A stretch of DNA of 64,000 nt from contig CM060732.1 of assembly GCA_030704615.1 (NCBI GenBank), forward strand, positions 46,934,001 to 46,998,000, given 5' to 3'. A program made the translations under genes and the position numbers. Under the pieces are notes generated by a model that had not been told where the DNA came from, did not search any database, and saw nothing but the letters and a program-made list of their open reading frames with translations. Of the stretch, positions 16,101 through 64,000 are shown piece by piece. Position 1 is the first letter of the stretch. Each line of letters opens with the position of its first letter. Origin of the DNA: Takakia lepidozioides (Eukaryota > Plantae > Bryophyta).

Positions 16101-17990
16101 CTCCTGGGCGTGGGTCAGTACCTGCATCATGGCAGGTTTCCAAAACATTCATGATTTTGAAATTGCGACGATGTCCAACACAGAATAGGAGAAAATTATA
16201 CCTGATGCCACCAAGTCATGACATTGAGCCAGTCGTTCATTTTGTCGTCTGTTGGCTCGATGGGAAAGTGGTACAGCAGCTTCGTGTTTGTATGGCCGTT
16301 CCAGATTCGCAGCCACCTCGTCTGCAGCCACCTCACATCGGTCAGACAAGAACTCAAACATAAGAATCGCGAGAAGTCACAAAACAAGAATAAACACATG
16401 CTTACCTTCTCCGCCGGCTCAACACAGGACACTGCGATGTGATGAAGTTTCTCCATGGACATTTCCGGTTTCATGGGTCTGGAGTAATGCAGTCCTATCT
16501 CCGCCAGGAACTCGGCACCAAGACCAGGGTCAGCGATTGCAACTTGCTTAACAAGTTTGGACCTGTACTTGGTCCGGGATTGCTTCCCTGCCTGCACAAT
16601 ATGACTCTCTATCGACGCGTCCGCCTTGTTGGGGGCATCATTCCCAAAGAACTGCCTTTTGGCATAGGCCAAGTCATCCCTGATGTTCGTCTGCATTCCC
16701 ATACCCAGCAGATACAGTCAGGCCACGGATCCCTGCAACAAATAACATTAAATTGATACTGAAATTTGAGATGAACCTCACCGAATAGAGGATCTCCACC
16801 ATGGCGTCCAGTGTTGGTCGGTACCAGGTGCGATCTGCTTTCGCTAGGGACTTCCTGTACAGCTCGGGATCGAGGGACTTTTGGAAGTCCGTCAGCGGAG
16901 CTGTCACCACTTCTTGCACTCTGTAGAGCGTATGTGCCAGATGAGTTTCCACGAAGGCCCTCTTTGTTACCCTACCATGGAGAAAAAAAACAACATGAAA
17001 ATATGATTTCGGCACAGCAATCCAATTTCCAGTTCATAGAGTGCATGACAGTGGTGAACATTGCCTATTTCGGCGCCGCAATAGGCAGTACACAAGGATG
17101 TAATTGTATACTTACATATTTATATCCGCCATGGCACCCTTCAACAGTCCTCTGTCCCTGACGTCCACCGCATCTGTGTTTTCTGAAATTGACTGCAAAC
17201 CCAATATCTCCGCTTCCAGTCTCCCTAGGGGTTTTACTGGCGAAGCCATGGGCTCCTTCTGCTTTCTCGGCTTCCAAACTCTAGGTGGGCTTTTCGGAGG
17301 CGATATCTGAGGTGTTGAATGAGGACTCGTCTGCCTCGATGCACTTCCACCTTGTGAGCGCAGCACCCGGGCAAGAGTATCCAAAGTTGACTGTGTTGCC
17401 TCGCCCCCCTGCGATCCCTCCCCAGCTCCCATGTCAAACAAACAGGAAAACATGAGACACTGCACGCCAAAACAAAGGTGTAAAAGGAATATTGCGTATG
17501 GAGTGCTTCACATCCGCGAAGCACGAATCTCTCACTGGTGGGCGATCCGAGTCTCCGGATAACGAGGTCTGCATTTCATGCATGAGACGGAGCTTAAGTC
17601 GTGTCGTCGGCGGCTTCCCAAAATCCCGCGTCCTCCTCTTTGCCGGAGTCGCCTGACCTTCCACAAACTCTATGCTACCACTATGCCGCATAAGGAGAGG
17701 AAACGCAGGAGAATGTCACTGCAGAAGGGCAAGGAGCGAGAGACCGAAGCGGTGGAACATGCAACCACTATGCACGAGCAGATGCGTAAGCAGCCACGTC
17801 TCCCGAAGCGTTGCCACCGTCCACCACTTTCTGCCGTATGGGTGATGAAGAGATGTGACCCCTGACACGTTCGCACGGATGAAGTCGACTGGAACACGAC
17901 TCGTGCCAGTTCCAGCCACCAGTGTATGACGGTTTATCCGAATTGCGGCACCGAAATACCTTCCGTTCACCGGATGCTGTTCCCGGAGCA
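16100..17990 (-). CDS. Putative multi-exon gene of unknown function, divergent from the MULE transposase
   Basis: Consecutive minus-strand ORFs 17716-18066, 17112-17465, 16674-17015 and 16196-16702 separated by short T-rich intron-like gaps; no recognised domain. Confidence 0.35.
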
Positions 17991-18750
17991 GCCGGCATTG
18001 AATGAAATATCCGCACATCATGAAACCCAACCGCCATGAAAATCCCCTGCATATGACATTCAACAATCAGGTCGGTACGTTTCATCAGCGGACGGATGAA
18101 TTTCGGCGCCGAAATTCATCCTATTTAAGTGCTTTCATACACAAACTTACAAATGTCGGCGCCGCAATTCATCGCTTCCCAAGTCCTCATTCGTCATGAG
18201 CAAACCTGTCAGTGGGATATCGGAGCCGGAATTAATTCCGGGACAACGGAAACGGTTGCACTTCGGCACATTTCATCCATATTTCGGCGCCGAAATTCAT
18301 CCAGAGCGAAGACTAAATCGGCACGATGCTATGCTTTGCCGCCATCATTGCCCCTGACGGATGTTGTCCATGCCTGTTGGACTTGCCATTTCTGGACATT
18401 TAACTATAATTTCGGCGCCGAAATTATACTTTATGTGCGGCAACGTCCCGTGCGAAAAAGACCACTTAATGGATACTGTCGGTTTCAAATGAAAAAAAAC
18501 CGGCTAAAATGCAATTAATTTTGACAGAAGTGGTTTAATATGCCGATTTCTCCATTAAATGCAGAATATTCCTGTTATATTCGTCGGAACGGGGTATTTC
18601 CAACGATTTACGGAAAATTATCATCCAAAAGCAAAAAGTAAGTGCCGGGTTTGGACGAATTTCGGCGCCGAAATTCATCCGTCGCATAGAAAATGTAATA
18701 TTAGAGTTACTCATTGCGGACAGTAAGGATGAATTTCGGCGCCGAAATTG
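17060..18750. repeat. Array of palindromes GAATTTCGGCGCCGAAATTC, left part
   Basis: Perfect 28-bp palindrome at 18094-18121; further copies near 17065, 17940, 18280, 18410, 18657, 18730. Confidence 0.9.
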
Positions 18751-18757
18751 ATCCATT

Positions 18758-19107
18758 TGTCAAGTTAAATAAGCACAGTGTGAAAACAGCTAGCATAAAA
18801 CTAGTTGTTTGTATTTAACACTTGGATTTAGGTCAAGTGTTAAATCAGGTGTCAAGTTTAGTTTGACACCTGGTCCGTCTTATCTTCACCAGAGCGGCAG
18901 TCGCGCGGCTCATCTCTCTCGAGTTGAGCCTGCGCGACCGAGCTCTTGCAGCGTTTAGGACTGAGTGTGCTTATGATGGGAGTATAGGTTGTTGTGGGGT
19001 GGAGTCCCCATAGCTTGGGGTGCCCCTGGCTCGACTTCTATTCTAAAGAGTGATGGTTTTGGTTGTCATGTTTTGTGTCAACAGTGTGTTCTTAGCTTTT
19101 CTTATCA
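18758..19107 (+). repeat. E2 repeat A1 (350 bp, TG...CA)
   Basis: Matches 30639-30988 with two differences seen. Confidence 0.96.
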
Positions 19108-19123
19108 CTCGAGAGAGATGAGC
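19108..19123 (+). promoter_or_regulatory. E2 self-complementary primer-binding site
   Basis: CTCGAGAGAGATGAGC directly after A1 is the reverse complement of GCTCATCTCTCTCGAG at 18908-18923; no TGG-type tRNA PBS. Confidence 0.8.
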
Positions 19124-19441
19124 GTTATCTAGTGAGCTGGTGCTAAGCTAGATACAATGTTTGTTTTAGCATTATTATAATATATATCTTGGGGCGGGAG
19201 TCCATCTGGCCCTACTGTTTCTATGGGTTGTGCGCGCAGATTTAGTTGTCGTCTCTGCTCGTGAGTTTGAAAACCAAGAGGTGTGGAGGTTGAAGACTTT
19301 GATAGTTGGCTTCCCTACTCTCTTTCACTAGGACGGAGGGAGACGAGACTCGTGTAAACTTTTGGATTCGGACCCAAAACAGTCGGGAGTGGCTGGACCA
19401 CGAAGTGCAAACAGTTTGGGGTGGCGTCATCCCTGGTTGTG

Positions 19442-19543
19442 GTGGCTTCCTCTGGTGGAGGTGCTGCTGCTGCACCTGCCGGAGAAAAGGAGGAAGCGAA
19501 GGAGGAGTCTGATGATGACATGGGTTTCAGTCTTTTCGACTAA
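19442..19543 (+). pseudogene. Captured C-terminal fragment of a 60S acidic ribosomal P protein (P1/P2 type)
   Basis: Reads VASSGGGAAAAPAGEKEEAKEESDDDMGFSLFD-stop (TAA 19541-19543); no in-frame ATG upstream, so absent from the ORF track. Confidence 0.88.
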
Positions 19544-21711
19544 GCTTGGGATGTAGTGTTGCAGCGCATCCGATGGTCTTTCGCAGTTGACAGTAGGTCG
19601 AGCCACAGCCGAATGGAAATGAGGTTGCTGATAAACCCAATTGGAGAAGGTGCAGTTGATGTTATCTCAACTGCAGGTGGCTGCTGAGCATTACTTAACA
19701 GCCGTTTTATACCTGCGCTGGTGCTGGTAGAGGCTAGGAAGAAGGAGTGAGCTGGAAGATTCCCGCCCTTCTTCAAGCATGCTAGGCTCAGGGTGGAAGG
19801 TTCAACTTACGGCGGGCTGCTGGAGAGCTAAGAGGTCTGCCACCTATCAGCCTCTGCTCTAGCCTCTGCTCTGCCTATTCTGTGTGAGTGGATTGTTCCA
19901 CCGAGGGTAAAGCGCTGGCTGGGATTTGGTGACCAGCGATATTCCGCCATCACGAGTGGGACTGGCTTCCTTGGGTTAGTTCCGATTTGCAAGGCAGCAA
20001 GTCTGCATTGTTTGCTGTCTCTCGCAATGGCCATTTGCTGCAGGGTTGGAAGTTCAAGGTCAGGCCCTCAGGTTCCCTTTTCGGGCCAATCGTTGCTGAC
20101 ATTCCGGAAAATCCATACTATGCTATCAGGGTTTTCTGCTTAGTAATAGGCCAGGTGAACCCTTCTCTCGTGAACGGCCTACACACCAACCCCTTCCTGC
20201 ATTGGTTCCTTCAGGCACCAGTTACCTTCGCCAATTTGATTCCAGGGAGTGGGTGTGGAAAGACAAGAAACACAGCCCGTTTTTCAAGTACATTGTCAAA
20301 TTGGACTATAGCCAGCCACTATGAAGGAGTAGTTGTGGGCTGGTTGATGTGAGGTTGTCTAGCTGTACATTGCGAGGAAGCAAGCTTTCTTATCTTAGCA
20401 AATGGATGGACAGGGTCAGGCTAGATTTTCTAGCAAGTGCGTAAGCTGCTGTCCAGCAAGGAAAAGCTGATCAGCAGTAGAAGCATGAGATGCGGCGTGT
20501 GTGACTTGAGATAGATGTACACAGGGAAGGACCAGCCGCGTAGCCTGCTTTGCGATCAGGTCTTGCATCAGGTCTAGGCGACAGTGGCGGCATTAATGTT
20601 TGTGAGACGGGGTGATCTCATATATTAACATTGCAGCCTAGTGAAGGAAGACCAGGTGAGGCTCTACATACATGACCAGCGGTGCTTTGATCCGGAGTTG
20701 CAGTTAGAAATTGTGAGACAAAAAGGAAAAAACATTGTAGTACATTTGACCTTTCGGCCACCAGCAGGTGCAGGTCCAATTATATCACTTGGTCCTTGAA
20801 GTGGTACACCAGGCCGAGCTTCTCCCTTTTGATTTTGCGTTCAGTTGGGAGCCCGCTATCAGTTCTCAAGATGGGGCAGCTTCATCCCATCGCCTTGGTT
20901 CTGTGCATGTCCCTGGTCATGGGGATGTAATAACCACCCTAAGCCAGTTTAGAGTGGTGTTTGAGGTCCTGGAGAGCTTGAGCGTTTACAGCACCAGCGT
21001 ATACTGTAACCCTCTCTGCTATGGCGATCTTCAGGCTGCTCTTGGGGTATATGCCAATGGTCGATGAAGGTATTAGCACCACCTTGGAAATCACAAATTG
21101 AACGTGATGGTCTTATTGCTGTGGTTGATATGTATTTGCCCAGTACATGAATGGTTGCGGAAAGCCATCCTGGTTGTGGTCACTCTGACAGGGCAGTAGA
21201 CATGGGCTCTCATACAACAACGATAAGATGGCATTGATAGCAGCAGCTTCAACAAGGTGTTCTCGTTTTGAAAATCTGGCATACCAATGAGGACATTACC
21301 TTTATCATGGTAATTCCACTGTGGAGAGATTGAGTTAAGAATCTAAGGAATTCTTAGGGAACCAGGGAACAGGGAACCTGCAGTGAATCCCAACAGACGT
21401 GGGAACAGTTTTTAATGGTGAGAACATTTTGGTGTTAAAAAAAAAAAAAAAAAAACCTTTTGATCTAATTTAAAGGATTTAGAGCCTGGTTGGTCATATC
21501 TTTGTCAAATGAGCTCCGTTTGACTCAGTTTTTGAGGGGATAGCTGCAGAAAGGGGAAATCTACCTACCTAGACCTGATTTTTGTTTTTAGGACTCTGCT
21601 AAAAATCTATGGAATGTTTAGAGTGTGAGTGTGCCATGAAAGATCCACAATTCTGTTTCTAGAACTTGTGCTGGTCTATATGATAGACAAATCTGTGGAT
21701 GTACTCCTTGT

Positions 21712-22461
21712 ATGGCTGGGGGAAATGAGGACGTAATTGAAGGGCAGGTCTCTTCTCTTAGCCTGTGCACACAAGGGGACAAGATCTATGTTTCCCAAGG
21801 AACTCAGACTGATTTGAGTGGAGAACAGTTGGACGAGTTGATTGCATACTGGGAGTCAGGCATTAGCAGTAGACAACAGACTGCTGTAGTTGGCATTGAG
21901 GGCCTCAATATCGCCTTGGACAGTCAGAACTCTGTTGGAGCCAGCAGTTCTGCAGCTGTAGGTGAAATACCAAAGTGGGTGAAAGCTAGGCTTGGAACAC
22001 AGCCAAAGACAGCTCCGGGGACCAAGGTGTTCAGCCACAAGGCCGTGGTGTACTGGAGCAGAGGAGCAGGAGCTGCACAAGTTTGTGCAATTAGACAGTG
22101 TTGCAGACGGACACGCTCTGCACAAGGCAACCACGAGCGGGGGTTCATTAGCGAGGACAAGTTTGTTCTGTTTGAAGGCGATGCAGTCATCCGCAATGAA
22201 GACACCCGCAACCGTCTCAAAGCTTTCGAGTTGAGAGACTATCAGACCCTACCTTTGTTTTCTTTAGTGTTCAGTGAGCGGGAGATAGGGGAATACTGCT
22301 TTGTCTCTACCTGGCAGAAAGAGGAGGAGGGTTGGTTAGAGCGAGCTACTGTAGCTTGGGACAAGGTTAGTGGCAGGTTTCTGGACATAGATATACCTCC
22401 TACACCTTACCATCAAGCAGAGCGAGGCACTTTGAGAGAAGTCTGGAAGTTGATAGCATAG
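21712..22461 (+). CDS. Extra 249-aa ORF of unknown function in the E2 leader
   Basis: Uninterrupted ATG-started ORF upstream of gag; no counterpart seen in the E4 leader. Confidence 0.5.
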   Translation: MAGGNEDVIEGQVSSLSLCTQGDKIYVSQGTQTDLSGEQLDELIAYWESGISSRQQTAVVGIEGLNIALDSQNSVGASSSAAVGEIPKWVKARLGTQPKTAPGTKVFSHKAVVYWSRGAGAAQVCAIRQCCRRTRSAQGNHERGFISEDKFVLFEGDAVIRNEDTRNRLKAFELRDYQTLPLFSLVFSEREIGEYCFVSTWQKEEEGWLERATVAWDKVSGRFLDIDIPPTPYHQAERGTLREVWKLIA

Positions 22462-22980
22462 ATCAGGATTAGATCTTGCTTGGGCGGGCTTCTATTCTTC
22501 CCCTCCATCTCTGTACTATTTTCATTACCTTGTACTTGTAGTTGCCAAAGCCTCTCTTGGTGGAGGCCAGTCAGTCCGGGGTTTTGGGCTGGGATATTCT
22601 GCAGGATCAGCATTGCAGCTGGATTTTGGTGTGGGGGTGTTGATGTTTTGATTTCTTGTGTTTGGATCCCCCCCAACACCTGCATGCTTGACTGTGCGCC
22701 ATGTTGGTTTTGTGTGGGCGCTTGCTTTCATAGGGATTAGGCCGGATTTGATCACCGGTCAATCCTAGAGTATGCTGTCGGTGGTGAGGCTGGAGTGATG
22801 ACCAGCAAGACCACCAGTGTTTCTTCTATGGTGAGGCTGGGTTGATGACCAGCCAACCATAGGAGTTCTTGCGGTGGATGCAGGTACAGGTGCCCTGAGC
22901 CATTGGGATATGACCCTTAGACTGCAACAGGTGCCCACCCGTGTCACTATTAGATTAGTACTAGAGCCTTATAGTGTCAC

Positions 22981-25900
22981 GTGGAGGAGGTGCACATTGT
23001 GAGTGTCATTACGGAGTTACCCAAGGGTTTTGAGGGGAGTACGGCTACAAGCAGTGATAGTGAGAGTGGGTTCACAAGACAAGGTATTCGGTTCAGACCA
23101 CCTTCACCGCCACCCTCAACTACTGTAGAGTCAGACACAGACTCGGAGGCTTCATCAACAGGTGTGCACTTTCATTCGCCATTGTTGTGGGACGACATGG
23201 AGGAGATGTATGGAGCTACCAAGGGGCCTCGTAGGTACTCTGGAGCTGTGGGCACAATCGAGTTGGATGACTTTATCCAGGAGTTCGACAGCTGGTGTGA
23301 TTTGCAGCAGATGCGCAATCCACAGCTATTCACCCCATTCATGGCGTGGAAGGGACTGTTCCAGCATTTGGAAGGCCCGCCTATGGACGATTACCACGAG
23401 TTCAGGCGAGGACATGAAGCAGAGATTGAGGAGTGGAGGATGTATTGGTCACCTGACTACGTCTCCATTACTCGAGGCACGACGCGACCAGTAGCTGCAT
23501 CAGTACCAATAGCTCCCACTGCCAGCACTAGTAGTGGAGCAAGTAGTGCTGGTACTTCTGTAGGTGGTACCAGTTCAAAAGGTGCTACTACTTCTCCTGC
23601 CACGACTACAACACATGTGCCTAGATTCAACCCGGTGGTGGAGTTCTTCCAGGAGTTGCGGAGGAACTACCAAGGTGTACGGACAGAGAAGCTGCGAAGT
23701 TTGCAAGACTTCCAGCGCAAACCCAGTGAGAGCCTGCGAGAGGCGTACACTCGTATGAGGCGCTTGATAAGTGTGACCCAAGGGGTTACTGAAGCTCAGG
23801 CAATCCAGTTTTGGTATGGAATTCTGGACAAGGAGCTCAAGAGAAGGGTGCGAGATGCAACCCTGTTACAAGCAGCCCAACCCACATTAGCAGATGTGTT
23901 TCTGCTGGCTGAGCGGATTGAGCTCAACATGGTGGAGGAGCGAGTTGTTACAATTGGATTTGGCAAGGACATGCCTGTACGGGGCACAGCTGTCAGCCCA
24001 CAAGCACAAGGGACTGCCCAACAGCGTGGTCAGGGGGGCAAGGTTGCCCAGCCCAAGTTCCATGGAGCTTACAGGGGACCTCAGGTGCAGAGGCCCGTGG
24101 CATCTTTTGCAGGCCAACAGCAACCAGGGGTGATATGTTGGACATGTGGAGGACCCCATGTCAAGAGAGATTGCCCAGAGAGTGGCAGAAGCCGGCACAA
24201 GCACAGCCTGCACAGTTGCAGTGTGGGCATTGTGGCAAGTATGGGCATGGAGATGCCCAGTGTTATGACTTGCATCCTGAGTTGCGCCCAGGCCAGTTCC
24301 AAGGGAACAATGGTGGCCGGGGGCGAGGTGGACCAGCCCAAAGAGGACGAGGTGGTCGGGCACGAGGTGCAGGCCAAGGCAAGCTCCACATGGCCAAGGA
24401 CGCGGAGGTCAGGGTGTTGACCAAGGCATGGCCAATCGGCTTCAGCAGCTAGAGTAGAGGCTCGCTGCCATGGCTATAGCTCAGGCGATACCGGCTCCCA
24501 GGCAGGATGGCCCACCTCCCGCTCCTGAGGGAGGAGATATGGGAGGCATGGGATTTATGTGCGGAGCAGCACTACCACTAGAGCAGGTGGAGTCTGCTGC
24601 AGCCGTGACTCGAGGAGCAGCACGAGTTCCTGAGCCACGAGGTGCAGAGGTGGAGTTGGATCCACAACGTGGGGAGGCAAGCCGTCAGGCGAGGCTGCCT
24701 CAGTCATTCACCTTGGCGGAGACAGTGTCAACGCCATCCATGGCACCTAGTTCTCGCCCGACTGTTACCGAGGCGGAGGTTACTATGCCATTGGGGAGAG
24801 CTACACGTGCAGCACTGACACCTGCTACCAAGGCTAGTGCAGCCGGTGTGTTATTGGGGGCAGCCATCTCTGGCAACCATGATTGCGACGCCGGGGGTGA
24901 GACCAGCTGCAGTGTTCAGACTAGCAGCAACTCTCTGTGAGAGTGGGGAGGTCACTTCATCTTCTACGGAGTTAGTGGAAGGTATAGTGGCAGAGGGATC
25001 CTCGGATTTGAGGGTCAAGACTGCCACGGCTGCGCCATGGCAAGTTGCAGCTGCCAGGTTGACGGAGCTGCCAGCTAGGCCAGCCATTGAGCGCGCCATG
25101 GTGACACCTGGAGTTGTCTTGTTAGACAACCAGGGAGGCATTTTCACTTTGAGTGGACCGGCAGGCAAGAAGTACCGGCCACTGCGGGTCTTGTTGGACT
25201 CAGGAGCTCAGCCACTGATGTTGGGCAGAGCTGCTATTGCAAGTTTGGGCCTCATGGAGGCGGATATGGAGCCTTGTCCTTTCCAGATACAGACATCTCT
25301 GGGAGGATCAGAGCAGGCTCGCGGCATGACACGGCATCAGTTGGCTATTAGACTGCAGCCGGATCATCCTGTAGATGGCTCAGTGATGCGAGCCAAGGCC
25401 ATTGTGACAGACGCGGTCTCTTACGATGTCCTCGTTGGTGGGGCAGTGTTATACCCCATGGGCTTCACCCTGGATTTCTGGGAGGAGTCAGCATCCTACA
25501 GGCCTGGATGGCAGTCAGGGGATGGTTGCCGTGCACAGCTCCCTGTGACATTCATTGGGGGTATTGCAGCTGCCCAGCGGGGCAAGATGCCAACACTAGC
25601 CGCCTTCACAGTTGCCGTTAGTTGGCCTGGAGAGTTGCTGGAAGGCAATGCCCATGCAGAGGATGTGCCACCTCCAGCAGAGCAGGATGACATGCATGGT
25701 ACGGCGGAGTTGCCTGCCATGGTTGCTCACACTCCGTTGTGGGGTACGAGCAAGGATTTGCAGCAAGCTGCAGATGGACGGGTGCAACAAGCTTGGGAAG
25801 AAGCTTTTGTACCGTCAGGAGAGGAGGAGAGTGCGGTGATTGCACCAGGGCCACCTCAGTTGTCGCCATTGGACACCACACCTCTTGTGTGGCAGCGGCC

Positions 25901-27158
25901 GGATGAAGGCATTTGCCTTCTGGACTTGTTTGGCGGGATCAGCACCGGATTGGCTGCTGTGCTACAGGCAGGTGTGCGGGTAAGGCGTTACCTGTATGTG
26001 GAGAGGGATGAGACTGCACGACGCGTCTCACTGCGCCATGTGGCTCAGTTGGTACAGCAGTACCCTGACTTGTTGCCTGTGTCTGCAGTTCGTGGATACC
26101 AACAAGCCTTGCCAGCAGACATTTCCTTGTTGGGGGCGCAAGATTTGGAGCAGGTTGGCTCCATTGATCTGATAGTGGCAGGTTGGCCCTGCCAAGGGCA
26201 TTCATCAGCCGGGCATGGCAATGGATTGCGAGACTCGAGGACGGGTCTGTTTTGGGAGATGGTGCGGATTTTGCGCTGCTTGCAGCTTCATCAAGCTGTA
26301 TCTCCAGCATACATCTTGGAGAATGTACCACTGATGGGTGATTCTCCGGCCAGGGTGATGGCCAGTGTGCATCAAGTCCGGTCGTGGCTTGGGTCAGCAG
26401 TGTTGCTGGATGCAGCTGCAGTGGGGTCACGGGCTCATCGTCCACGACTATGGTGGACTAACTTGATGCCACCCGCACTGCTCAAGCGTGCATTTGATGG
26501 GGTGCAGCGGCCAGCACACCTCACCGTGGATGGCATTTTGGACACAGGAAGGCAGTCTCAACGTGTGAGACACGATGACCGTTCGCCTTTGGCAGTGGTC
26601 AACAGGGTGGGTCAACCACGAGCAGCATTACCTACACTGCTCAGCTTCCCAGGATCCCATGCTTTTCGGGATGGTGGACCTGGCCTCCTGTGGGATGCTC
26701 AGTTGCAGCAGTTAGTGGAGCCTAATGCCGACGAGCGAGAGCGGGCTATGGGGTTTTCCACTGGGACCACGGCGGTGCCTTCTCTTTCTGAGGCATCACG
26801 TCGTCAGGTGTTGGGGCAAGCAATGGATCTCAATTGCTTGACCTGGATTGTCAGCTTGGCTATGGCTGAGCAACGTAGAGTGCGGAGTGCACTTCCCTTG
26901 ACGGTCTCTCTGCCTACCGAGACGGTACAGGCAGCGAGTGGGGGCGAGCCGGTGAGGACCACGAGGTGTAGACATCCATGGCACATGTGGGAGGTGCTCG
27001 AGGTTCAGAGGGAGTTGGCAGCGAAGGCAGCTGTGATGGATGAGGTTGGGGATTCTTCTCGGGATGAGGAGGTTCTCAATGATGAGATGATGGGGCAGGA
27101 TGAGGCCTTGTCATTGACTGAGCAGGAAAGGGGTACTGCTCAAGAGGTTGCAGCATAG
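22981..27158 (+). pseudogene. E2 Gag-protease-DNMT polyprotein region (frameshifts near 24190, 24380, 24860; stop near 24454)
   Basis: Gag with zinc knuckles CWTCGGPHVKRDC and CGHCGKYGHGDAQC; aspartic protease LLDSGAQP; DNMT motifs; lesions are not shared with E4. Confidence 0.9.
25911..26840 (+). CDS. C5-cytosine DNA methyltransferase domain (DNMT3-like) within E2, uninterrupted
   Basis: Motif I LDLFGGISTG, II YVERD, IV AGWPCQGHS, VI ILENVP, VIII AHRPRLWWTN, IX ERERAMGF, X RRQVLGQAM in canonical order. Confidence 0.93.
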
Positions 27159-27164
27159 CAACCA
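27156..27164 (+). promoter_or_regulatory. Putative stop-codon readthrough signal TAG-CAA-CCA
   Basis: In-frame TAG followed by CARYYA; identical 9-mer in all four copies; frame continues into RT. Confidence 0.75.
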
Positions 27165-30100
27165 CGGGACGCGTCCTCTACCTCTAAGCCCACTGGACTT
27201 AAGGTTGCAGTTACGGAGGACAATTGGGAGCCTGACATTGGACCCATTGTCACCGGAGGAGAGAGACGACGTATACGGCGGTTCCTGAGGGCTTATAGGA
27301 ATTGCTTTGCCTTCAGTTTGAAGGACTTGGGAGCACTGAAGGGTCAAGAGATCCGTATTGAGTTGGCCACTGACACGCCAATCTTTCGGAGACCCTATAG
27401 ATACAGTGACATGGAGAGGTTTTGATTCAGATGAGGACTCAAGATCTCTGGGAGGCAGGTTTGGTGGAGCTCTCTGGTGGAGAGTATGCTTCAGCCACAG
27501 TGATGCCAGCTAAGAAGGATGTCTATGGCAATTGGACGGAGAGACGTATGTGCGGTGATTACCGGCCTGTAAATCGTCAGACCAAGTCCGATAGGTATGC
27601 CATGCCAACACCAGAGGAGATCTTTGATGCCATTGGGCATTCCAAGGTCTTTAGCACGTTGGATTTACGATCCGGATATCACCAGTTGCCGATCAAGGAG
27701 GCGGATAAGCAAAAGACGGCATTCTGGGGGATCAATGAGCACGGGAAGGATTGCCTATACCAGTGGCGGTTCTTACCATTTGGGCTTAAAAACGCTCCCG
27801 CTGAGTTTCAAAGAGTCATGGACAGGATTCTAGCAGGGGTGGAGTTTGCTCGGTGCTACATAGATGACATCATCATCTTTAGTGCTACGGTGGAGGAGCA
27901 TGAGAGACACCTTCAGGGGGTATTTGAGCGCTTGAGGACGCACGGATTGAAGTTACATCCGGGCAAGTGCAAGTTTTTCCACAACCAGATTGAGTATCTG
28001 GGTCACATGATATATCCTGGAGGATTGGGGGTACAGCAGACTAAGGTAGAGTCCATTGCACAGGTTCCACGCCCCACGGATGTGAGCCGAGTTCGAGCTT
28101 TCATGGGGTTAGCAAACTATTACAGACGGTTTGTTAAGGGATTTAGTGCCATTGCAAAGGCTCTAACCAAGCTGACCAAGGTGGACCAGGAGTGGCAGTG
28201 GGAAGATGAGCAAGAACAAGCTTTTCAAGAGCTCAAGGCGAGGTTGACCTCGGCGCCCATCTTGAGACGACCTATCAGGGGGCGTCCTTTTCAGCTGCAT
28301 ACAGATTGGAGCATGCTGGGGCTTGGAGCGGTGCTCACACAGGTGGATGATGAGGGAAGAGAGTTCGTAGTGGCTTATGCTAGCCGCTCGAACAATGCTG
28401 CAGAGTCTAAGTATAGCTCATATGAGGGAGAATGCTTAGCTGCAGTGTGGGCCGTGGCACACTTCAGGTGCTATTTATACGGCAATCTCTTCACCCTTGT
28501 CACGGATCACCAACCACTCAAGTGGTTGATGGAGTCAGACAAGCTTACGGGGAAGCTTGCACGGTGGGCACTCATCCTTCAAGAGTATGACTTTCAGGTG
28601 GTGCATCGACCGGGTTTGGTCAATCGAAATGCAGATGGGTTGAGTCGCAATCCATGCACGAGCCAACAGGATGACACTGGAGCTCGGTGGCATGGTGAGA
28701 CGGACGAGGAGATGGTGCCCGGATGGCATGCATCTGCATTTCTGTGTATCTTGGCAGCGGAAGGCCAGGTTGGACCTACAACAGGGATGACTGTAGATCA
28801 AGTGTCTGAGGACCCTGAGGCCAGCAATGAGCAGGGTGGCGCCAAAGATATACATGAGGATTCAGTTGTGTTGGACTACCTCCGCAGTGGAGACACGGCA
28901 GCCACTATGACTGCCAAGGAGAGGGATCGGATCCTACAACGAGCCAAGAGGTTCAGGTGGGAGGGGACACACCTGCTCCGAGTGTGGGAGGATGGTCGAG
29001 TGAGGATTGTGCCTCACCCAACACAGCGGGCACGGTTAGTGCGGCATGCCCATGAGGAGTTGGGGCATTTTGGGGTGCGACGCACTCATAGTCTACTGCA
29101 GGGGCAGTATTGGTGGCGTGGTATGCACACAGAGGTGCAACAATTTGTGGCTAGGTGCATGGTGTGTGACAGGGTGCGTGCTTCATTCAACGCCCCTACT
29201 CCACAATTGCACCCTCTTCCGATCATGGGATTGGGCTACAGGTGGAGTCTTGACTTCGCAGGGCCGTTGCCACTGACCATGCGCCACAACAAGTACGTGT
29301 TGGTGATGGTGGAGCACTTCTCCAAGTGGATTGAATTGGTTCCATTGCCTGATAAGGCTAGTGAGGGAGCTGCGTATGCATTCTTGGATTGTGTGCTTAG
29401 CCGATTCGGTGCTCCAGCTGAGGTACTCACGGACCAAGGGAGAGAGTTCTTGGGGGAGTTTCAGGCTTTGTGTGACAAGGCCTTGATAGACCACCGCACC
29501 ACTTCTCGGGATCATCCTGAGGCCGATGGCTTGGCAGAGAGAGTTGTTCAGACAGTAAAGAGGGGTTTGCGCAAGTATGGCTTGCAGAAGGGACACCTAG
29601 GAGATTGGGACCTTCAGTTACCCTGGTTAGCCATGGGCTACAGGTTCAGCAAGCAAGCATCACTTGCCTCCTTCTCACCATACTTTCTTCTCTTTGGCCG
29701 AGAGCCGGATTTGCCTACATCCATTCGCAGAGAAGCTGCTACAGTTCTTAACCTTGACGATCCGGACGTGTGGGCACGTGCATGTGAGCAGCGTGCAGAG
29801 TTGTTCAAGAGAGTCATGCCCATGGCTTTCGAGAACCTTGCCATTGCACAACACCGTGATACGTTGAGGTATGCTACCATACGTGGTGGGGGCTATCGTC
29901 CTGGGGTTCGGAGATTCAACCCTGGTGACTATGTCTATCTGCAGCAGACTGCTCCTACGACCCTGGATGTGACTGCAGGACGTGTTATTTTGAGGGTTCG
30001 AGAGGTCTTGCCCTCAGGCGTCTTGGTCTTGGAGGGTCGGGATGGCATAACTTGGAAGGACCATGTGCGTAATTGTGCGCCATGTCACCTTCCGAATGTC

Positions 30101-30292
30101 GATGGCAGGATTGACCCAAACCTGGCAGTGGTATCTGCAGGTTTGAGGTGCATGTTGTGTGGGTCTGCTAAAGGGGCAGCCACCATGCTGGTGTGTGATC
30201 GATGCTCTAGAGGTTGGCATATGGGATGCTTGACTCCACCTCTTGAGATGGTTCCGGATGGGGATTGGTTATGTCCACAATGCATTGGATAG
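27159..30292 (+). CDS. E2 Pol: RT, RNase H, DDE integrase, C-terminal PHD finger (one frameshift near 27420)
   Basis: LDLRSGYHQ, PFGLKNAP, YIDD; TDWS...GAVL, DHQPL; HEELGH...CMVC, LDFAGP, TDQGREF, AERVV; PHD at 30149-30283 (CMLC...CDRC...HMGC...WLCPQC). Confidence 0.95.
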
Positions 30293-30540
30293 TGGGAGTG
30301 GATACAACCATGGAAGGCTAACAAGCAACGCAAGGCCCAGCTACAGGAGACCTTGAATACACGAAGTCCTGGCTCAAGTTCACAGATTGCAAGACGGCGA
30401 CTAACGATGGGGCTACTCTTGTACCCGGCCTCTTGGTCTATAGAGTTTGAGTACGATAGGGACAGTGATAGAGGACTTAGTACGGCTATGGCTATTACGT
30501 CTTGTAGCTATCTGGAGGTAGAGGGACCTATCCACCAGCT

Positions 30541-30550
30541 AGGGGGGCGA
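30541..30550 (+). promoter_or_regulatory. E2 polypurine tract
   Basis: AGGGGGGCGA directly before B1; CACCAGCTAGGGGGGCGAT is shared by E2, E3 and E4. Confidence 0.85.
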
Positions 30551-30551
30551 T

Positions 30552-31074
30552 TGTGGTAGACTACTTTATTGTGCATATATGTGTGGTGTGGTTTGGACAG
30601 CGATGTAGTTGTGTAGCGATATGTATGCGCACGACAGCTGTCAAGTTAAATAAGCACAGTGTGAAAACAGCTAGCATAAAACTAGTTGTTTGTATTTAAC
30701 ACTTGGATTTAGGTCAAGTGTTAAATCAGGTGTCAAGTTTAGTTTGACACCTGGTCCGTCTTATCTTCACGAGAGCGGCAGTCGCGCGGCTCATCTCTCT
30801 CGAGATGAGCCTGCGCGACCGAGCTCTTGCATCGTTTAGGACTGAGTGTGCTTATGATGGGAGTATAGGTTGTTGTGGGGTGGAGTCCCCATAGCTTGGG
30901 GTGCCCCTGGCTCGACTTCTATTCTAAAGAGTGATGGTTTTGGTTGTCATGTTTTGTGTCAACAGTGTGTTCTTAGCTTTTCTTATCATTGTGGTAGACT
31001 ACTTTATTGTGCATATATGTGTGGTGTGGTTTGGACAGCGATGTAGTTGTGTAGCGATATGTATGCGCACGACA
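30552..31074 (+). repeat. E2 3' terminal block: B1 30552-30636, GC spacer, A2 30639-30988, T, B2 30990-31074
   Basis: B copies identical (85 bp, TG...CA); B1/A2 junction is the palindrome GACAGCTGTC. Confidence 0.95.
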
Positions 31075-31109
31075 CATTTCAAAGAAAAATAAATATTGGA
31101 GGGAAGGCA

Positions 31110-32010
31110 TTGGATGAATTTCGGCGCCGAAATCCGGCGCTAAAACCCTGAAAAGAATTTGGAGGGATGAAGTCGGCTGAATTTCGGCGCCGAAATTCAT
31201 TGCTCGCGAAGGAAAAAAAAATTTCTGGAGGACTTCGGATGAATTTCGGCGCCGAAATTCATTGCTCGCAAAGGAAAATAAAAAAATTCGGGAGGACTTC
31301 GGATGAATTTCGGCGCCGAAATTCATTGCTCGCGAAGGAAAATAAAAAATATCTCCTGGACTTGGAATGAATTTCGGCGCCGAAATTCAATGCTCGCGAA
31401 GGAAAAAAATAAAATCGGGAGGATTTTGGTTGAATTTCGGCGCCGAAATTCATTGCTCTCGAAGAAAAAGGAAAATTAAAATGGAGTACTTGGATGAGAT
31501 TCAGCGCCAAAGTTCATCTGTCGCAAAGAAAAAAAAAACAGAAAGGACTTCCGATGAATTCTGGCACCGAAATCCATCCGCAGGGCAGCAGAATTAGGGT
31601 CGGAAAAGGAGATGAAGAATGAATTTCGGCGCCGAAATACATCCATTCTGCCGAATCAGGATTACTGTCATTCGGAAGTCGGCACCGATATCCGGACACG
31701 TGGTGAATCACGACTGTAATCAGGAACACATTCATCCGTATTTTGGCATCTAAATTCAACCCATATGTGCAGATACAATTTAATGAAGAAGAAGTTCATC
31801 CGAATTTCGGCACCGAAATCCATCCGTTGGGTGTTTGGTCAGTTTAATGAGGTAAACAAATTACGATTTCTGTTGCCAGAATTCATCCCTTGGCTTCCAA
31901 AGCTGTTACATGACAGAGATGTTCATCCAGATTTCGGTGCCGAAATTCATGGGAAGGCCTGATTTATTGTACCCCAAGTGGTTGTACATTACAATTCAGG
32001 CACCAAATAT
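31110..32010. repeat. Array of palindromes GAATTTCGGCGCCGAAATTC, right part, about 65-bp period
   Basis: Near-perfect copies from 31116 to 31640 with related A-rich linkers, then decayed variants (CGGCACCG, CGGTGCCG). Confidence 0.9.
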
Positions 32011-32198
32011 CCGATGTGAACTTGCTGTTTTCGTCCGTTTTTTTAACGTACGTTACACACCTTCATCTTTACGTGCACTGATCACCCATCATGTTGGATA
32101 CGGAATCCTCCAGAAAATCATTTGTGTTATTAGGTAGGACACACTCTTCTCATTGCAGGACTTCGCTGCGGAGCGTACCGAGAGGTCCCGTCTTCAAA

Positions 32199-35100: not shown

Positions 35101-35730
35101 GTGTGTGTTCGGCAAGCCCAAGTATGGTGTACAAGGCATGCCTGAACCACCGGCAGTCTGGCATGTGGAAGTGGTACAGATCTTACCCTGGAGGAGCCAG
35201 ACGCTCTAGGAAGTGCAGGGTTTCGACTGGTGGAGAGGACAGACGTTCCACGAAATCCAATTCCCAATCGTCATCCTCCTCCCACGAGAAGCTCTTCGCC
35301 CCGCATACCGGTGGGTGACCCCGCAGCTTGGCCCACCCATCGGTGGGGTAAACTGAAAAGACGGCGGCCACCAACAAAGGCGAACGACACCAGGATGGCC
35401 AACGCTCTTGCAATGCCCTGCATAGTGCAAGGTTGCAGGGATGTTCCTCACCCCGGGATAGGGCGCATATTTCAGTTGTCAACAGCCGGGTCTGCTGCGC
35501 GCAGTGTCGTGTATGCAATCACGGTTTCACAGTACCCAGCTTGCAACTGTGAGGACTTCCTTGTTATGGAATCGAGGAATGCAGCATACGTCCCCTGCAA
35601 ACACCTTTATTACATTTTTATGAAGCGCATGAGTTGCATATCCGCAGTGGACGTCTTTATCCATGCTCCAACACTGAGTTTCAACGAGCTGCACAAGGCC
35701 CTACGGCAGGATACTGGTCGGACTGCTTGA
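32199..35730 (+). pseudogene. Mutator-like (MULE) DDE transposase with N-terminal Cys-rich domain and C-terminal SWIM finger; intron 34218-34303; frameshifts
   Basis: WVMFDH, GFMADNAQANWAAVRRVYG, CGFHF (CxxH), TTNMAESVHS, SWIM CNCEDF...CKHL; GT-AG intron joins MRQ/DMS in frame. Confidence 0.82.
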
Positions 35731-36786: not shown

Positions 36787-36859
36787 CAGAGAAGAGTGAA
36801 GAGCAAAATGAGAGCAAGGCCTCCCTCACCGTAAGGCGGGTATTTGCTCTCCGACGCCC

Positions 36860-43500: not shown

Positions 43501-44540
43501 ATTCTGGAGGGTTGAGATGGCATAGTATGGAAGGACCATGTGCGCAATTGTGCACCATGTCACCTTCCACATATAGATGGGAGGATAGATCCTAACCTTG
43601 CAGTGGTACTTGCAGGATTGCGTTGCATGCTATGTCGGCGTGCTGGTGGCGCCGCAACCATGTTGGTGTGTGACAAATGCTCAAGGGAGTGGCACATGGG
43701 ATGCTTGACACCGCCACTTGAGGAGGTTCCTATCGGAGAATGGTTGTGTCCACGATGCCTTGGACAGAGGTAGTGGGCATGACAATGGTGAGGCGGGCAA
43801 GTGATCCAAGGTCTAGCTAGTGGGCTTCAATGCCATGGATACTCAACTGAAGATCATGGATTGCATGAAGACGACTAACGATGGGGCTACGTTTGCACCC
43901 GGCCAATTGATCTATCGACTTCAGGTGTTGGGATCTGTGCGATTGAAGACCAAACGATGATCTTCTTGGGGTGGATACTTGCAAGCTATCCGTTGTTAGA
44001 GGGACCTAATCACCAGCTAGGGGGGCGATTGTGGCGTGACTTTCTAGGACTATATGCTAGGAAGTGTGGTTGGACAACGATGTATGTTGTGGCACGATGC
44101 TTAGGTGCACGACAGTTGTCATGGTTTTGTTTGTGATTAGTTAGAAATAGTTATTTCTAACTAATTAGGAAATTATACATTTATATTTGTATTTTGTTGG
44201 CATTGGGACTTCATTTGGTTCCATGTGTCAAGTGAGGTGGCGAACCTCACTTGGGACGTGGAGAGGTTATCGACGTAGGCAGGCTCGTCTTCTTCTAGTC
44301 GAGCCTCCCGAGGCCTCTCTCCCCGCCATAGCTCTAGTACTTGAGATGGAGAGTGGGTGAGGTCTGTATGGTGGAGTCCTTTAGCAAAGGTGCCATTGGC
44401 TTGACTTATATAACGTGGTAGGGTGGTTTCTCCTCTTTTCACCATTTCCGTATCTATTGTGGCGTGACTTTCTAGGACTATGCTAGGAAGTGTGGTTGGA
44501 CAATGATGTATGTTGTGGCACGATGCTTAGGTGCACGACC
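37562..44540 (+). mobile_element. E3: 5'-truncated, degenerate DNMT-Gypsy element of a second subfamily with 3' block B1 44030-44114, GT, A 44117-44456, B2 44458-44540
   Basis: Starts in the Gag knuckle region; DSG, DNMT 39307-40236, TAGCAACCA at 40627, YIDD, integrase, PHD 43624-43758, PPT 44019-44028, junction GACAGTTGTC. Confidence 0.92.
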
Positions 44541-48183: not shown

Positions 48184-51100
48184 TGTCGTGCGCATACATA
48201 TCGCTACACAACTACATCACTGTCCAAAACCACACAACACATGTGCACACCACACACTAGTATACCACTAGTCCACCACTAGTCCAACCACTAGTCTACA
48301 ACTAGTCAGTCACTAGGCTGCCACTATGCTGCCCACTATGGCAGTCACTAGTCCACACAATGATAAAGAAGAAGAATACAAGCACGAGCTCACAAATCTG
48401 AAGCATAAACTCATGCATATATAACCTCATCACTCAAATACAAGTCAAGCCAAGTGCACCCCACGCCATGGGGAATCCACACTACGGCGCCATAGCTAGG
48501 CGCGGTGAGGCTCAACTCGAGAAAGATGAGCCTCCCGCGCTTGCCGTGAAGATAACCACTCCAGGGCCTAAATCTGCCTTGACCCCTGGATTGACACTTG
48601 GGCCAATCCCAAATGTCAATATGTAAAAGCTAGCTATTTCCTAGCTAGTTTCACACTAGTGGTAAAATAACTTGACAGCTGTCGTTCGCATACATATCGC
48701 TACATAACTACATCGTTGTCCAAAACCACACAACACATGTGCACGCCACACACTAATATACCACTAGTCCACCACTAGTCCAGCCACTAGTCTACAACTA
48801 GTCAGTCACTAGGCTGCCACTATGCTGCCCACTATGGCAGTCACTAGTCCACACAATCGCCCCCCTAGCTGGTGCTTAGGTCCCTCTAAGTCCAGGTAGC
48901 CACAAGATGTGATAGTGACCATAACCTCACTAAGTCCTCCACCACTATCCCTACTACACTCAAACTCGATAGATCAAGAGGCCGGGTGCAAGAGTTGCCC
49001 CATCGTTAGTCGCCGTCTTGCAACCTGTGAACTTGAGCTTGGGATCTCATGTATTGACTCCTATGAGCTTGGCCTCCCATGTCTTGTTAGCTGCCTCCAG
49101 TCATGTCCACTGCCACTATCCCAAGCAGTGTGGACACAACCAATCTCCGTCAGGAACCTTCTCAAGAGGTGGTGTCAAGCATCCCATATGCCAACCCCTT
49201 GAGCATCGATCATACACCAGCATGGTGGCTGCCTCTTTGGCAGACCCACAGAGCATGCACCTCAAACCTGCAGGTACCACTGCCAAGTTTGGGTCAACTC
49301 TGCCATCGACATTGGGAAGGTGACATGGCGCACAATTACGCACATGGTCTTTCCAAGTCATGCCATCCCGACCCTCCAAGATCAGGACTCCTGAGGGCAA
49401 CACCTCTTGAACCCTCAGAATAACACGCCCTGCAGTAACATCCAGAGTCGTAGGAGTAGTCTGCTGCAAATAAACATAGTCACCAGGGCTAAACCTCCGA
49501 ACCTAGGACGATATCCTCCACCACGTATAGTGGCATACCTCAACGTATTACGGTGTTGTGCAATGGCAAGATTCTCAAAAGCCATGGGCATGACTTTCTT
49601 GAACAACTCTGCACGCTAATCACATGCACGTATCCACACGTCCGGATCGTCAAGGTTAAGGACTTGAGCAGTGTCCCTACGAATGGCTGCAGGCAAATCT
49701 GGCTCTCGGCCAAAGAGAAGGAAATATGGTGAGAAGGAGGCAAGTGATGCTTGTTTGTTGAACCTGTAGCCCATGGCTAACCAAGGAACCTGAAGATCCC
49801 AATCTCCTAGGTGTCCCTTCTGCAAGCCATACTTGCGCAAACCCCTCTTCACCGTCTGAACAACTCTCTCTGCCAAGCCATCGGCCTCAGGATGATCCCG
49901 AGAAGTGGTGCAGTGGTCTATCAAGGCTTTATCACACAAAGCCTGAAACTCCCCCAAGAACTCTCTCCCTTGGTCCGTGAGTACCTCAGCTGGAGCACCA
50001 AATCGGCTAAGCACACGATCCAAGAATGCATACGCAGCCCCCTCACTAGCCTTGTCAGGTAATGGAACCAACTCAATCCACTTGAAGAAGCGCTCCACCA
50101 TCTCCAACACATATCTGTGGTGGCGCATAGTCAGTGGCAACGGTCCTGCGAAGTCAAGACTCCACCTGTAGCCCAATCCCATGATTGGTAAAGGATGCAA
50201 CTGTGGTGTAGGGGCATTGAATGAAGCACGCACCCTGTCACACACCATGCACCTAGCCACGAACTGTTGCACCTCTGTATGCATACCACGCCACCAATAC
50301 AGCCCCTGCAGTAAACTGTGAGTGCGTCGCACTCCAAAATGCCCCAACTCCTCATGGGCATGCCGCACTAACCGTGCATGCTGTGTGGGGTGAGGCACAA
50401 TCCTCACCTGACCATCCTCCCACACTCGAAGTAGGTGTATCCCCTCCCACTTGACCTCTTGGCTCGTTGCAGGATCCGATCCCTCTCCCTGGCAGTCACA
50501 GTGGCTGCCGTGTCTCCCGTGCGGAGGTAGTCCAACACAGCCGAATCCTCATGTATATCTCTGGCACCACATGGCTCATCACTAGCCTCAGGGTCCTCAG
50601 ACACTCCGTCTACAGTCATCCCTGTTGTAGGTCCAACCTGCCTTCCGATGCCAAGATATTCAAAAATGCAGATGCGTGCCATCCCGGCACCATCTCCTCG
50701 TCCGTCTCACCATGCCACTGAGCTCCAGTGTCATCGCCCTCTGATAGGTCGTCTCAGGATAGGCGCCGAGGTCAACCTCGCCTTGAGCTCTTGAAAAGCT
50801 CGTTCCTGCTCATCTTCCCACTGCCACTCCTGGTCCACCTTGGTCAGCTTGGTTAGAGCCTTTGCAATGGTACTAAATCCCTTGACAAACCGTCTATAAT
50901 AGTTTGTCAACCCTATGAAAGCTCGAACTCGGCTCACATCCGTGGGGCGTGGAATTTGTGCAATGGCCTCTACCTTAGTCTGTTGTACCCCCAATCCTCC
51001 AGGATATATCATGTGACCCAGATACTCAATTTGGTTGTGGAAAAACTTGCACTTCCCCGGATGCAATTTCAATCCGTGCGCTCTCAAGCGCTCCAATACC

Positions 51101-58809: not shown

Positions 58810-58825
58810 GCTCATCTTTCTCGAG
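58810..58825 (-). promoter_or_regulatory. E4 self-complementary primer-binding site
   Basis: CTCGAGAAAGATGAGC after A1 pairs with GCTCATCTTTCTCGAG (58981-58996, minus strand). Confidence 0.8.
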
Positions 58826-60809
58826 TGATAAAGAAGAAGAATACAAGCACGAGCTCACAAATCTGAAGCATAAACTCATGCATATATAACCTCATCACTC
58901 AAATACAAGTCAAGCCAAGTGCTCCCCACGCCATGGGGAATCCACACTACGGCGCCATAGCTAGGCGCGGTGAGGCTCAACTCGAGAAAGATGAGCCTCC
59001 CGCGCTTGCCGTGAAGATAACCACTCCAGGGCCTAAATCTGCCTTGACCCCTGGATTGACACTTGGGCCAATCCCAAATGTCAATATGTAAAAGCTAGCT
59101 ATTTCCTAGCTAATTTCACACTAGTGGTAAAATAACTTGACAACTCCGTCAATGCACTGATAGAAGTCACATGAAAGAAGAAGATTACTAGAACATTTGG
59201 AAACTACCCTATGGGAGGAGAAAGACAATCCAAACATCTTCAACTCTGACTGTTATATTGACACATCAGACATCAAGGTCCATGATACTGACAAAGACGC
59301 AGTCGAAGAGCCTGTTGATCCACGCGCATTTGCAGTCGTAATGACCTCGAACATCCACAAACAACGTGAATCCACATCTCCTTTCCCATTGTCCAATTTT
59401 CAAGGAGACGGTAGTGGTTGAGATGTGATGTTTCAGGAGGTGCATCTGGATGTTTGAGGACCTTCGGACTGGATCCTGTTCCGTTCATACTCTCCACGGT
59501 TCCCAGACATGTGGTGGCAGAGACGTCCCCCCCTGAACAGTCTCATCGGTGGACATAAATTCTGCAATGTATACACGCCCCCAAGTGCATATGCTTCCGC
59601 GATTTCCGCTATCGTGTTACCAATGGTTTCCTGCTCCATACGAAGGAGCTCGGACTCGGACACACACCACAAACCGTAAACGCATGCAATTTTTCCACAT
59701 ATCGTCCTAAAAAATAAGCACGTCAACACAAAACGAAGGCGAAAATAGTGGAAGCATATGCACGATGGTGGCTGTAGAGCCCCGCCAGCCCTCTCATGTT
59801 CAGGCACACCCTTCATGGTCAATAAAATCGCCATAAACAAGGACGAGTTCGTGGCAGGGTGTTACGATCTTCCATGCCCTAAACATGGATGGCGCGGGTG
59901 GGTTTCTCAGAATGAACGATCCAGATCCTTCGGCCGACGCGGATTGACAGACTGGCAGACTGGGGGGCAGTAGACGGGCACAACAGACTGTTGGATGGAC
60001 TTGCGGGGACTGACACAGCGGACTGGCGTGCACAGCAGACTGGCGGCTTGGCGGATTGAGGGGAACTGGACTCACGGGCAGCGGACTGGCGGGCAACCTG
60101 GCCACGCCGGACTGGTGGCGCGGCGGAGCGCGGGCGGGGCTGCCGCGGGCGCGGCTGGTGGGGCCGTGGCAGCAGGTGGGCGACCGCGCGCAACGGCGGG
60201 CGGGGGTGGGGTCCGGGTGGGGAAGCCGGGCATCTGTGCGCGGGGCCCACCGGTCAGCGCCATAACGTCCCAATTATTGTAAAATGACAGGCTAAATAAA
60301 ACATGGATAAAATTGGTGGTCAAACCAAGTTTTTCCATGAATTTTTTCATGATCCTACAAATAGGGGGTCACTCCCACATTATAATCTGCTCATTTCAAC
60401 GTTGGAATAGAGATGTAAAATTTTTGACCATTTGTATGATGTAGTTACTGACAACATTGTCCGGTTCATCCACATGAATGAACTTTGGCAACAAGATACA
60501 TCCACTCGAGTTAGCCCATGTCATGTTTTTTAAAAACATAGCAAAAAAGCTCTGCGTCCTTTAGGGGTTAAACTATCTTACGAAAAGCAGAATTTTGTTC
60601 CTATACATAGGTTTAAGACAACTTTGAGCTTCAACAAGGAATCAAATAGTTCGAAATCTCATCTTTTGTGAGAGAGGGAAATAACAAACATGAAATTTAA
60701 GCATGAAATTTAAGGTGAGTCCACAAAACCAGTAGCGTGAGGATGGGGTACATGCTTTTACTCGCTTCTCCAAATCCCTCAAAAGTGCATTCTCCATGTC
60801 AGCAATACG

Positions 60810-63874: not shown

Positions 63875-64000
63875 GTAATATTGTGGTTTTGAAAGCAATT
63901 TGCACAGTTGTGGGCAGTAATGTGCCTTTGTTTCTATGTACCTATGAGTAGATCAAAATTGTCATCTTCTGCCCCCTGAGTCTCTGGTGATGATTCAACC

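Follow-up and report, generated by a model that had tools for sequence, protein, structure and literature searches.

A split-repeat Gypsy element of the KnitGypsy-Dnmt3 kind with a predicted self-priming site

We analysed a 64,000-nt stretch of Takakia lepidozioides DNA (the window) and observed that one of its Gypsy retrotransposons, E2, carries directly behind its 5′ repeat a site that is exactly complementary to an internal part of that same repeat. Judging from sequence comparison and RNA folding, this is very probably a self-priming site in a KnitGypsy-Dnmt3-like element, at which reverse transcription would be primed by the element's own RNA in the manner of Tf1. Self-priming and the split-repeat Gypsy-methyltransferase architecture are each already published. 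The present case would extend self-priming to a lineage that lacks chromodomains and has split repeats.

Architecture of E2 and elements like it

E2 spans 18758-31074 with the layout A1...PPT-B1-GC-A2-B2 (Table 1). The element starts with TG, ends with CA and has CATT duplications outside; E4 shows the same layout with the target duplication GAGT. Two complete LTRs were not found at the element ends, which read A...B-A-B or A...B. In one run, 35 contigs depart from B at its CA into dissimilar flanks. Pfam domains of E2 comprise gag (weak), C5 methyltransferase, RT, RNase H, H2C2, rve integrase and a PHD finger, and the protease match was weak. Gag, protease, RT, RNase H and integrase stand in Ty3/gypsy order, and the best solved-structure match was Ty3 Gag-Pol (E = 5.7e-94). 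The coding region of E2 is split over several ORFs; in relatives, protease to PHD finger lie in one ORF (P0128). We observed no chromodomain match in the E2 ORFs at E 0.01, a PHD finger standing in its place at the integrase C-terminus, and no tyrosine recombinase match among the five E2 ORFs scanned. The window holds further copies of the lineage, namely an internal fragment (E1, 13146-16101) and E3 without its 5′ end (37566-44540).

Table 1. Positions of E2 features and of the ends of E3 and E4 in the window.
Feature	Position	Strand	Remark
Left copy of the 4-bp target-site duplication CATT, E2	18754..18757	+	Empty insertion site read in contigs of three runs (X2, X3, X5)
Repeat A1, 349 bp, starts TG	18758..19106	+	3 differences from A2
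Local hairpin over primer, predicted to form with upstream sequence in RNA	18900..18938	+	Fold −31.1 kcal/mol
Predicted self-primer (16-17 nt) and predicted 5′ end of genomic RNA	18908..18924	+	Start placed by TATA spacing in relatives
Primer-binding site (PBS)	19107..19123	+	Exact reverse complement of 18908-18924; no 5′ TGG
Gag-like ORF	22975..24420	+	Retrotrans_gag E 9e-4, under curated cut-off
ORF: weak aspartyl-protease match and C5 cytosine methyltransferase	24819..27158	+	PF00145 E 1.5e-12; PCQ, ENV motifs
ORF: RT, RNase H, H2C2, DDE integrase, C-terminal PHD finger	27410..30292	+	
Polypurine-tract-like (PPT) G run	30541..30549	+	Adjoins B1
Repeat B1, 87 bp, ends CA	30550..30636	+	Identical to B2
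Palindrome GACAGCTGTC at B1/A2 junction (CA-GC-TG)	30633..30642		Predicted integrase attachment site
Repeat A2	30639..30987	+	Primer-sequence copy 30789-30805 within closed hairpin
Repeat B2, ends CA	30988..31074	+	A2/B2 junction TTATC/ATTGTG unites PBS-defined end with PPT-defined end
Right copy of the target-site duplication CATT, E2	31075..31078	+	
E4 5′ end	58810..59142	-	A1 59142-58827, primer 58996-58980, PBS 58826-58810
E4 3′ end	48184..48857	-	B1 48857-48680, GC, A2 48677-48362, B2 48361-48184; duplication GAGT
E3 3′ end	44020..44540	+	G run, B1 44028-44114, GT, A2 44117-44455, B2 from 44456

KnitGypsy-Dnmt3 of Klebsormidium nitens has been described with Gypsy domains and a C5 methyltransferase in Pol, and the legend to Fig. 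4c gives it DIRS-type repeats in the order A-coding-B-A-B (de Mendoza et al. 2018, available text of PMC5890265). Going by this published description, E2 is alike in all of these features and differs in its host, which is another plant. The available text of PMC5890265 describes no priming or integration mechanism for KnitGypsy-Dnmt3, the word "primer" occurring once, in the methods; its three supplementary files gave no match for KnitGypsy, PBS, primer binding or target site. The combination of self-priming with split repeats, and circle opening, are absent from the available text of PMC5890265 and of the preprint 10.64898/2026.05.21.726589, while the supplements of that preprint, PMC6317226 and PMC9940879 may bear on novelty. 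In the literature searched, which did not extend to subscription papers, theses, Repbase and much of the older literature, Gypsy-Dnmt3 was named in two papers, and no paper was found that explains how split-repeat Gypsy elements prime or how they might integrate through circles.

Tf1 has been shown to prime itself, Tj1, Tcn1 and TAR have been proposed to do so, and priming by a 5′ RNA derived from the element's own LTR was predicted for 12% of the plant elements surveyed (available text of PMC6317226 and PMC4600332). Tf1, Tf2 and Tj1 (Tf1-sushi), the plant Tcn1 chromoviruses and the copia TAR lineage share with E2 a PBS complementary to their own repeat. All of these have ordinary LTR...LTR ends, and Tcn1 has chromodomains, whereas E2 has a PHD finger, a methyltransferase and split repeats, with a match of 12-17 nt in its lineage. 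The Tf1 primer is reportedly 11 nt long and retained. Membership of E2 in Tcn1 was rejected by domain content (PHD finger, no chromodomain).

The A...B-A-B layout has also been described for SymbioDIRS-Dnmt3 (available text of PMC5890265). Tyrosine-recombinase retrotransposons of the PAT/TOC1/Ngaro type share with E2 the split direct repeats in this layout, but E2 differs from them in its DDE integrase, TG...CA ends, 4-bp duplications, PBS and PPT. PAT/TOC1/Ngaro-type elements pass through a circular intermediate, and fold-back priming is said to have been suggested for TOC1. We rejected DIRS membership for E2 despite its split direct repeats, an rve integrase being present and a recombinase match absent from the five E2 ORFs scanned.

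Searches with the integrase-PHD region yielded 386 relatives at E 1e-20, among them named ones from Marchantia, Klebsormidium, Haematococcus, Volvox and Chromochloris. A K. nitens integrase-PHD protein is 53% identical to that of E2. An active Chlamydomonas element, Gypsy-7a_cRei, has a PHD finger and "LTR subparts" (available text of PMC9940879) and may belong to the lineage. No relative was present in the viral contigs searched. The methyltransferase lies between protease and RT in the window (24819-27158) and in loci of the related families S1 and S2, and between RNase H and integrase in L061, L069, L077 and L079 (~50% identical) and in the Scenedesmus polyprotein P0136. The domain has moved or was captured twice within one lineage.

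E2 sits in a repeat (18099-18750, 31096-31830) that is rich in the palindrome AATTTCGGCGCCGAAATT at ~63-bp spacing. This repeat is probably a DNA transposon; empty copies exist. It adjoins unannotated ORFs at 32082-35209 (no Pfam match), and a related array lies at 36834-37195. Elsewhere in the window we observed a 10-bp-unit tandem array at 56700-57320 in the 5′ part of E4, a 144-147-bp tandem repeat at 47415-47834 and an exon of an ANTH/ENTH-domain host gene at 62545-63951. The sum of contig depth was tens of times greater over 18764-19040 than over 19058-19300 (runs X2, X3, X5); depth is no copy number, and the contrast within A may reflect abundant subfamilies with diverged A ends.

Predicted primer and site in E2, E4 and related families

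The first-pass annotation had reported that the 16 nt after A1 are the exact reverse complement of a 16-mer within A. We confirmed this pair (GCTCATCTCTCTCGAG at 18908-18923, its reverse complement at 19108-19123 adjoining the 3′ end of A1) and extended it to 17 nt, T18924 pairing with A19107. The 17-nt site starts exactly where the identity between A1 and A2 stops. Both window copies that retain a 5′ end, E2 and E4, carry the complement. A match of 17 nt did not occur in 200 dinucleotide shuffles of the 650 nt counted from the start of A in E2 (0/200, longest shuffled match 12 nt) or in E4 (0/200, longest 11 nt), and the chance expectation for a 17-mer matching anywhere within the 349-nt repeat is 2e-8. 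A variant primer-like 17-mer stands in the A2 of E3 at 44283-44299, the 5′ end and PBS of E3 lying outside the window. Across window-family contigs of four runs, primer and site were free of variants in the 40 rows viewed of 82. The flanking positions 18907 (G to A) and 19124 (G to T) are variable in window-family contigs; carried together on one copy, these changes would lengthen the duplex by one pair, though contigs give no phase.

Primer and site had also been said to change together between E2 and E4, and this held for a single mirrored position (C/T with G/A). Alone, the mirrored change is thin evidence, and the weight comes from other families. A PBS is copied anew from the primer during plus-strand synthesis, so that a primer change can pass into the site and mirrored changes need not reflect selection for two mutations; the E2/E4 change therefore does not stand for two independent events. 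This recopying is likely part of the reason why the match has stayed perfect and free of wobble pairs. Such rewriting fits the absence of G-U pairs and the sharp borders of the match.

Metagenome relatives were read at the best 80 loci of 391 confirmed matches. We observed that relatives 53-75% identical to E2 in integrase-PHD have different primer/site pairs of 12-16 nt at the same location. In family S1 (~75% identity), L002 and L040 carry ACTCAAAGAACT after A1, and L010 and L015 have its complement in their A copies; this 12-nt pair had to be assembled from different copies, with A2 of L010/L015 set beside the L002/L040 site. Six of its 12 primer positions differ from E2, and the matching six site positions differ too. 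Family S2 (~53% identity) has a 15-nt pair of unrelated sequence in L030 and L048 (0/200 shuffles each). Further pairs were found in L006 (16 nt, 0/200 shuffles) and L077 (12 nt, 1/200 shuffles). These two loci read PPT-B-A-PBS, probably as collapsed assemblies of a repeated element, so we took only primer pairs from them and did not count them as circles.

Over the 15 regions scanned, the match was at least 15 nt in five, 12 nt in one and at most 11 nt in nine, the last being at or barely above the shuffle level. Six of these nine are old S1 or S2 copies in which the A1 primer or the site is decayed or deleted (L002, L036, L040, L031, L070, L071); the other three are GC-rich relatives (L035, L062, L069) whose 5′ end may be outside the stretch. 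The check for a loss of complementarity in other subfamilies, suggested in the first-pass annotation, thus turned up further families with different pairs at the same position. These data suggest that tRNA-independent self-priming, as first proposed, is the best reading of the site.

Most plant LTR elements use tRNAs (available text of PMC6317226), and a host tRNA or tRNA half might likewise prime E2, the match to A being incidental or a relic. We consider this extremely improbable: the site lacks the TGG start (0/7 sites compared), and there are five unrelated site sequences, each matched to its own element. The longest stretch shared with a tRNA was 7 nt, in a comparison limited to two poor ARAGORN calls.

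The position of the pairs relative to TATA boxes points to where the RNA may start. TATAAAA precedes the start of the S2 primer by 32 nt in 23/23 pattern matches, the pattern having permitted 29-36 nt and the rows including repeated loci. In S1 (L010/L017, L015) the distance is 31 nt; in L006 it is 27 nt, measured to the first base of the match. Neither E2 nor E4 has a TATA box, so their RNA start is borrowed from these relatives. The earlier proposal of a transcription start near 18908 thereby gains indirect support from the TATA spacing in three related families and from the folds described below. Its second option, a cleavage at 18908 that would make the primer, was rejected because the 3′-OH must arise at 18923/18924.

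RNA folding and the predicted route of priming

The primer/site duplex is part of the minimum-energy structure of 18908-19130 (z = −4.63; 0/200 shuffles equally stable). Its probability in E2 was 0.63-0.77 for RNA starts at 18893-18913 and 0.00-0.02 for starts at or before 18860, where the local hairpin dominated (0.96-0.98). E4 folded in parallel (duplex 0.74 vs 0.00-0.01). S2 showed no hairpin in the fold and a duplex at 0.95-0.98 whatever the start, and the duplex of L077 was not favoured in folding (P ≤ 0.03).

Counterparts of the hairpin occur in E3 and E4 with base pairs changed, and similar hairpins with a site-like 5′ arm are present in S1, L006 and L077. A2, the 3′ copy, is transcribed together with its upstream part and folds into the hairpin. 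Relative to A1, a T-to-A change at 30805 (the 17th primer position) perfects the hairpin in this copy. The full 5′ arm lies upstream of the predicted start, so the hairpin would form in RNA that includes this upstream part, either from the 3′ copy of A or by read-through. Short deletions in S1 cluster in the primer hairpin (L002:3170-3200, L003:2415-2445, L036:3058-3100), the predicted landing place of the first strand transfer. The competing hairpin that had been described around the 16-mer is real in the fold; its interpretation as a conformational switch does not hold as a necessity, given the upstream 5′ arm and the lack of a hairpin in S2. The hairpin is better read, most simply, as masking the second primer copy.

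The hairpin also bears on whether the primer could be supplied in trans or cut from a longer RNA (from a partner genome, read-through or the A2 hairpin), with a start other than 18908. Such a source would suit the missing TATA box of E2 and E4, the retention in E2, E3 and E4 of a hairpin with changed base pairs and stem pairs upstream of 18908, and the clustering of deletions at the hairpin in the S1 copies L002, L003 and L036. We nevertheless regard it as unlikely. The matched stretch starts 27-32 nt behind a TATA box in S1, S2 and L006, the 3′ copy of A, transcribed whole, accounts for the upstream stem, and in longer RNAs the primer is folded away from the site.

Two extra helices were observed near the pair, one of 18925-18930 with 19028-19033 (TGAGCC with GGCTYG), just behind the primer, and one of 19048-19054 with 19104-19110 (GAGTGAT with the first bases of the site). 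Both are conserved in E2 and E4 and in part also in E3 and S1, and they may set the cut site or gate priming. As competing helices close to the site, they would also suit a structural RNA stem with a role in packaging, dimerisation or translation control, just as the DIRS/PAT-like repeat layout would suit an internal complementary region of the DIRS type, priming being by other means in either case. Both versions together appear very unlikely to us. The match begins exactly at the end of the copied repeat, where minus-strand synthesis must begin, and contains zero G-U pairs over 15-17 nt in three families. The match is moreover to the inner part of A, not to the outer edges of the element, and a tyrosine recombinase match was absent from the five E2 ORFs scanned.

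Under self-priming, the genomic RNA would start at ~18908, and its first 16-17 nt would fold back and pair with 19107-19123. An RNase, by analogy with Tf1 the RNase H of the RT, would cut at 18923/18924 and free the primer; RNase H is reportedly required for Tf1 self-priming. Minus-strand DNA would then begin at the end of A and jump to A2, whose hairpin would hold the second copy of the primer shut. Synthesis of the plus strand would begin at B1, behind the PPT. The working LTR would be B+A and the cDNA B-A...B-A. The predicted primer length is given as 16 or 17 nt because the A at the A2/B2 junction could derive from either side. The repeat end in S2 retains three of the 15 matched bases, so the S2 primer would have at most 12 nt.

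Repeat junctions and a possible circle intermediate

Going by the site, the right end of the cDNA lies at the end of A; going by the PPT, its left end lies at the start of B. Since these two mark the ends of the predicted B-A...B-A cDNA, the integrated ends would not be the cDNA ends. We infer that each integrated end is one half of the B/A palindrome and that the A/B junction joins the two predicted cDNA ends. All 17 of 17 distinct B/A junctions located by alignment read CA, two bases, then TG or TA, a count that leaves out seven palindromes found by pattern search in distant relatives (L006, L007, L035, L061, L062, L069, L077). The central two bases are GC or its C-to-T/G-to-A decay. The ten distinct A/B junctions of S2 comprise two that are full, one short by 1 nt, five short by 2 nt (AT microhomology), one by 7 nt and one by ~190 nt. 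Three S1 cases, three window cases and eight contigs have A/B junctions without loss.

Distinct 3′ ends numbered 22 with B alone, 13 with B-A-B and one with B-A (L038 and L073, which run off their contigs, were left out of the B-only count, and one locus in several contigs was counted once). The B-only ends may be assembly collapses or products of B1 x B2 recombination. The A...B copies with both ends have a single A at the 5′ end and a perfect 4-bp duplication in 3/3. Divergence did not differ between A pairs and B pairs over six elements (99/1704, 5.8%, vs 49/898, 5.5%; P = 0.79, Fisher's test). E4 was an exception in that B1 and B2 differ more than A1 and A2 (7/178 vs 2/316; P = 0.013).

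We think it somewhat probable that the integrase opens 1- and 2-LTR circles at the internal site, the CA-gc-TG palindrome. The cDNA ends would be joined, and opening of the circle at the inner palindrome would give A...B-A-B; a one-LTR circle, or cuts at both sites, would give A...B. The precise B/A palindromes, the A/B losses resembling those of end joining and the A...B copies with duplications suggest such an opening. The similar divergence of A pairs and B pairs and the B-A end of the locus L056 (below) also favour it. A symmetric circle also predicts A-B-A...B copies, and their absence counts against circle opening: this mirror product was found in 0/3 informative elements (chance 0.07 under symmetry). 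The loss-free A/B junctions of S1 and the window, the unequal divergence in E4 and the other possible origins of B-only ends also count against it.

The missing A-B-A...B copies agree better with routes that have no closed circle. In these, an end-to-end template jump of the RT would add B2, or the integrase would trim linear B-A...B-A at the inner sites, with A...B-A-B arising when ends were joined first. The excess of distinct B-only 3′ ends (22 vs 13 B-A-B) points the same way, and linear DNA is the accepted precursor in retroviruses (available text of PMC1180852). These routes seem to us possible, if on balance doubtful. The spectrum of S2 junctions (blunt, microhomology, long loss) is that left by end joining, although template jumps also can be imprecise, and the inner palindrome is still needed as the integrase site in both routes.

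A comparable reaction is the one-step cut by foamy-virus integrase of the palindromic CA-NN-TG LTR-LTR circle junction, in which both ends are processed (available text of PMC1180852). In foamy virus the palindrome arises when the cDNA ends are joined, and circles are generally regarded as dead ends; in E2, by comparison, it would belong permanently to the LTR, and the joined ends would meet at another place, A/B. If the integrase does open circles at the inner palindrome, the lineage of E2 would be a natural case of LTR circles as integration precursors, an old and mostly abandoned idea. A DDE enzyme would then have converged on the DIRS/PAT strategy, and this would explain why finders of LTR pairs miss such elements. 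The locus L056 (= L057; L056:3693-3985) ends PPT-B-A exactly at the predicted right cDNA end, without B2, possibly as an unjoined linear end captured by repair.
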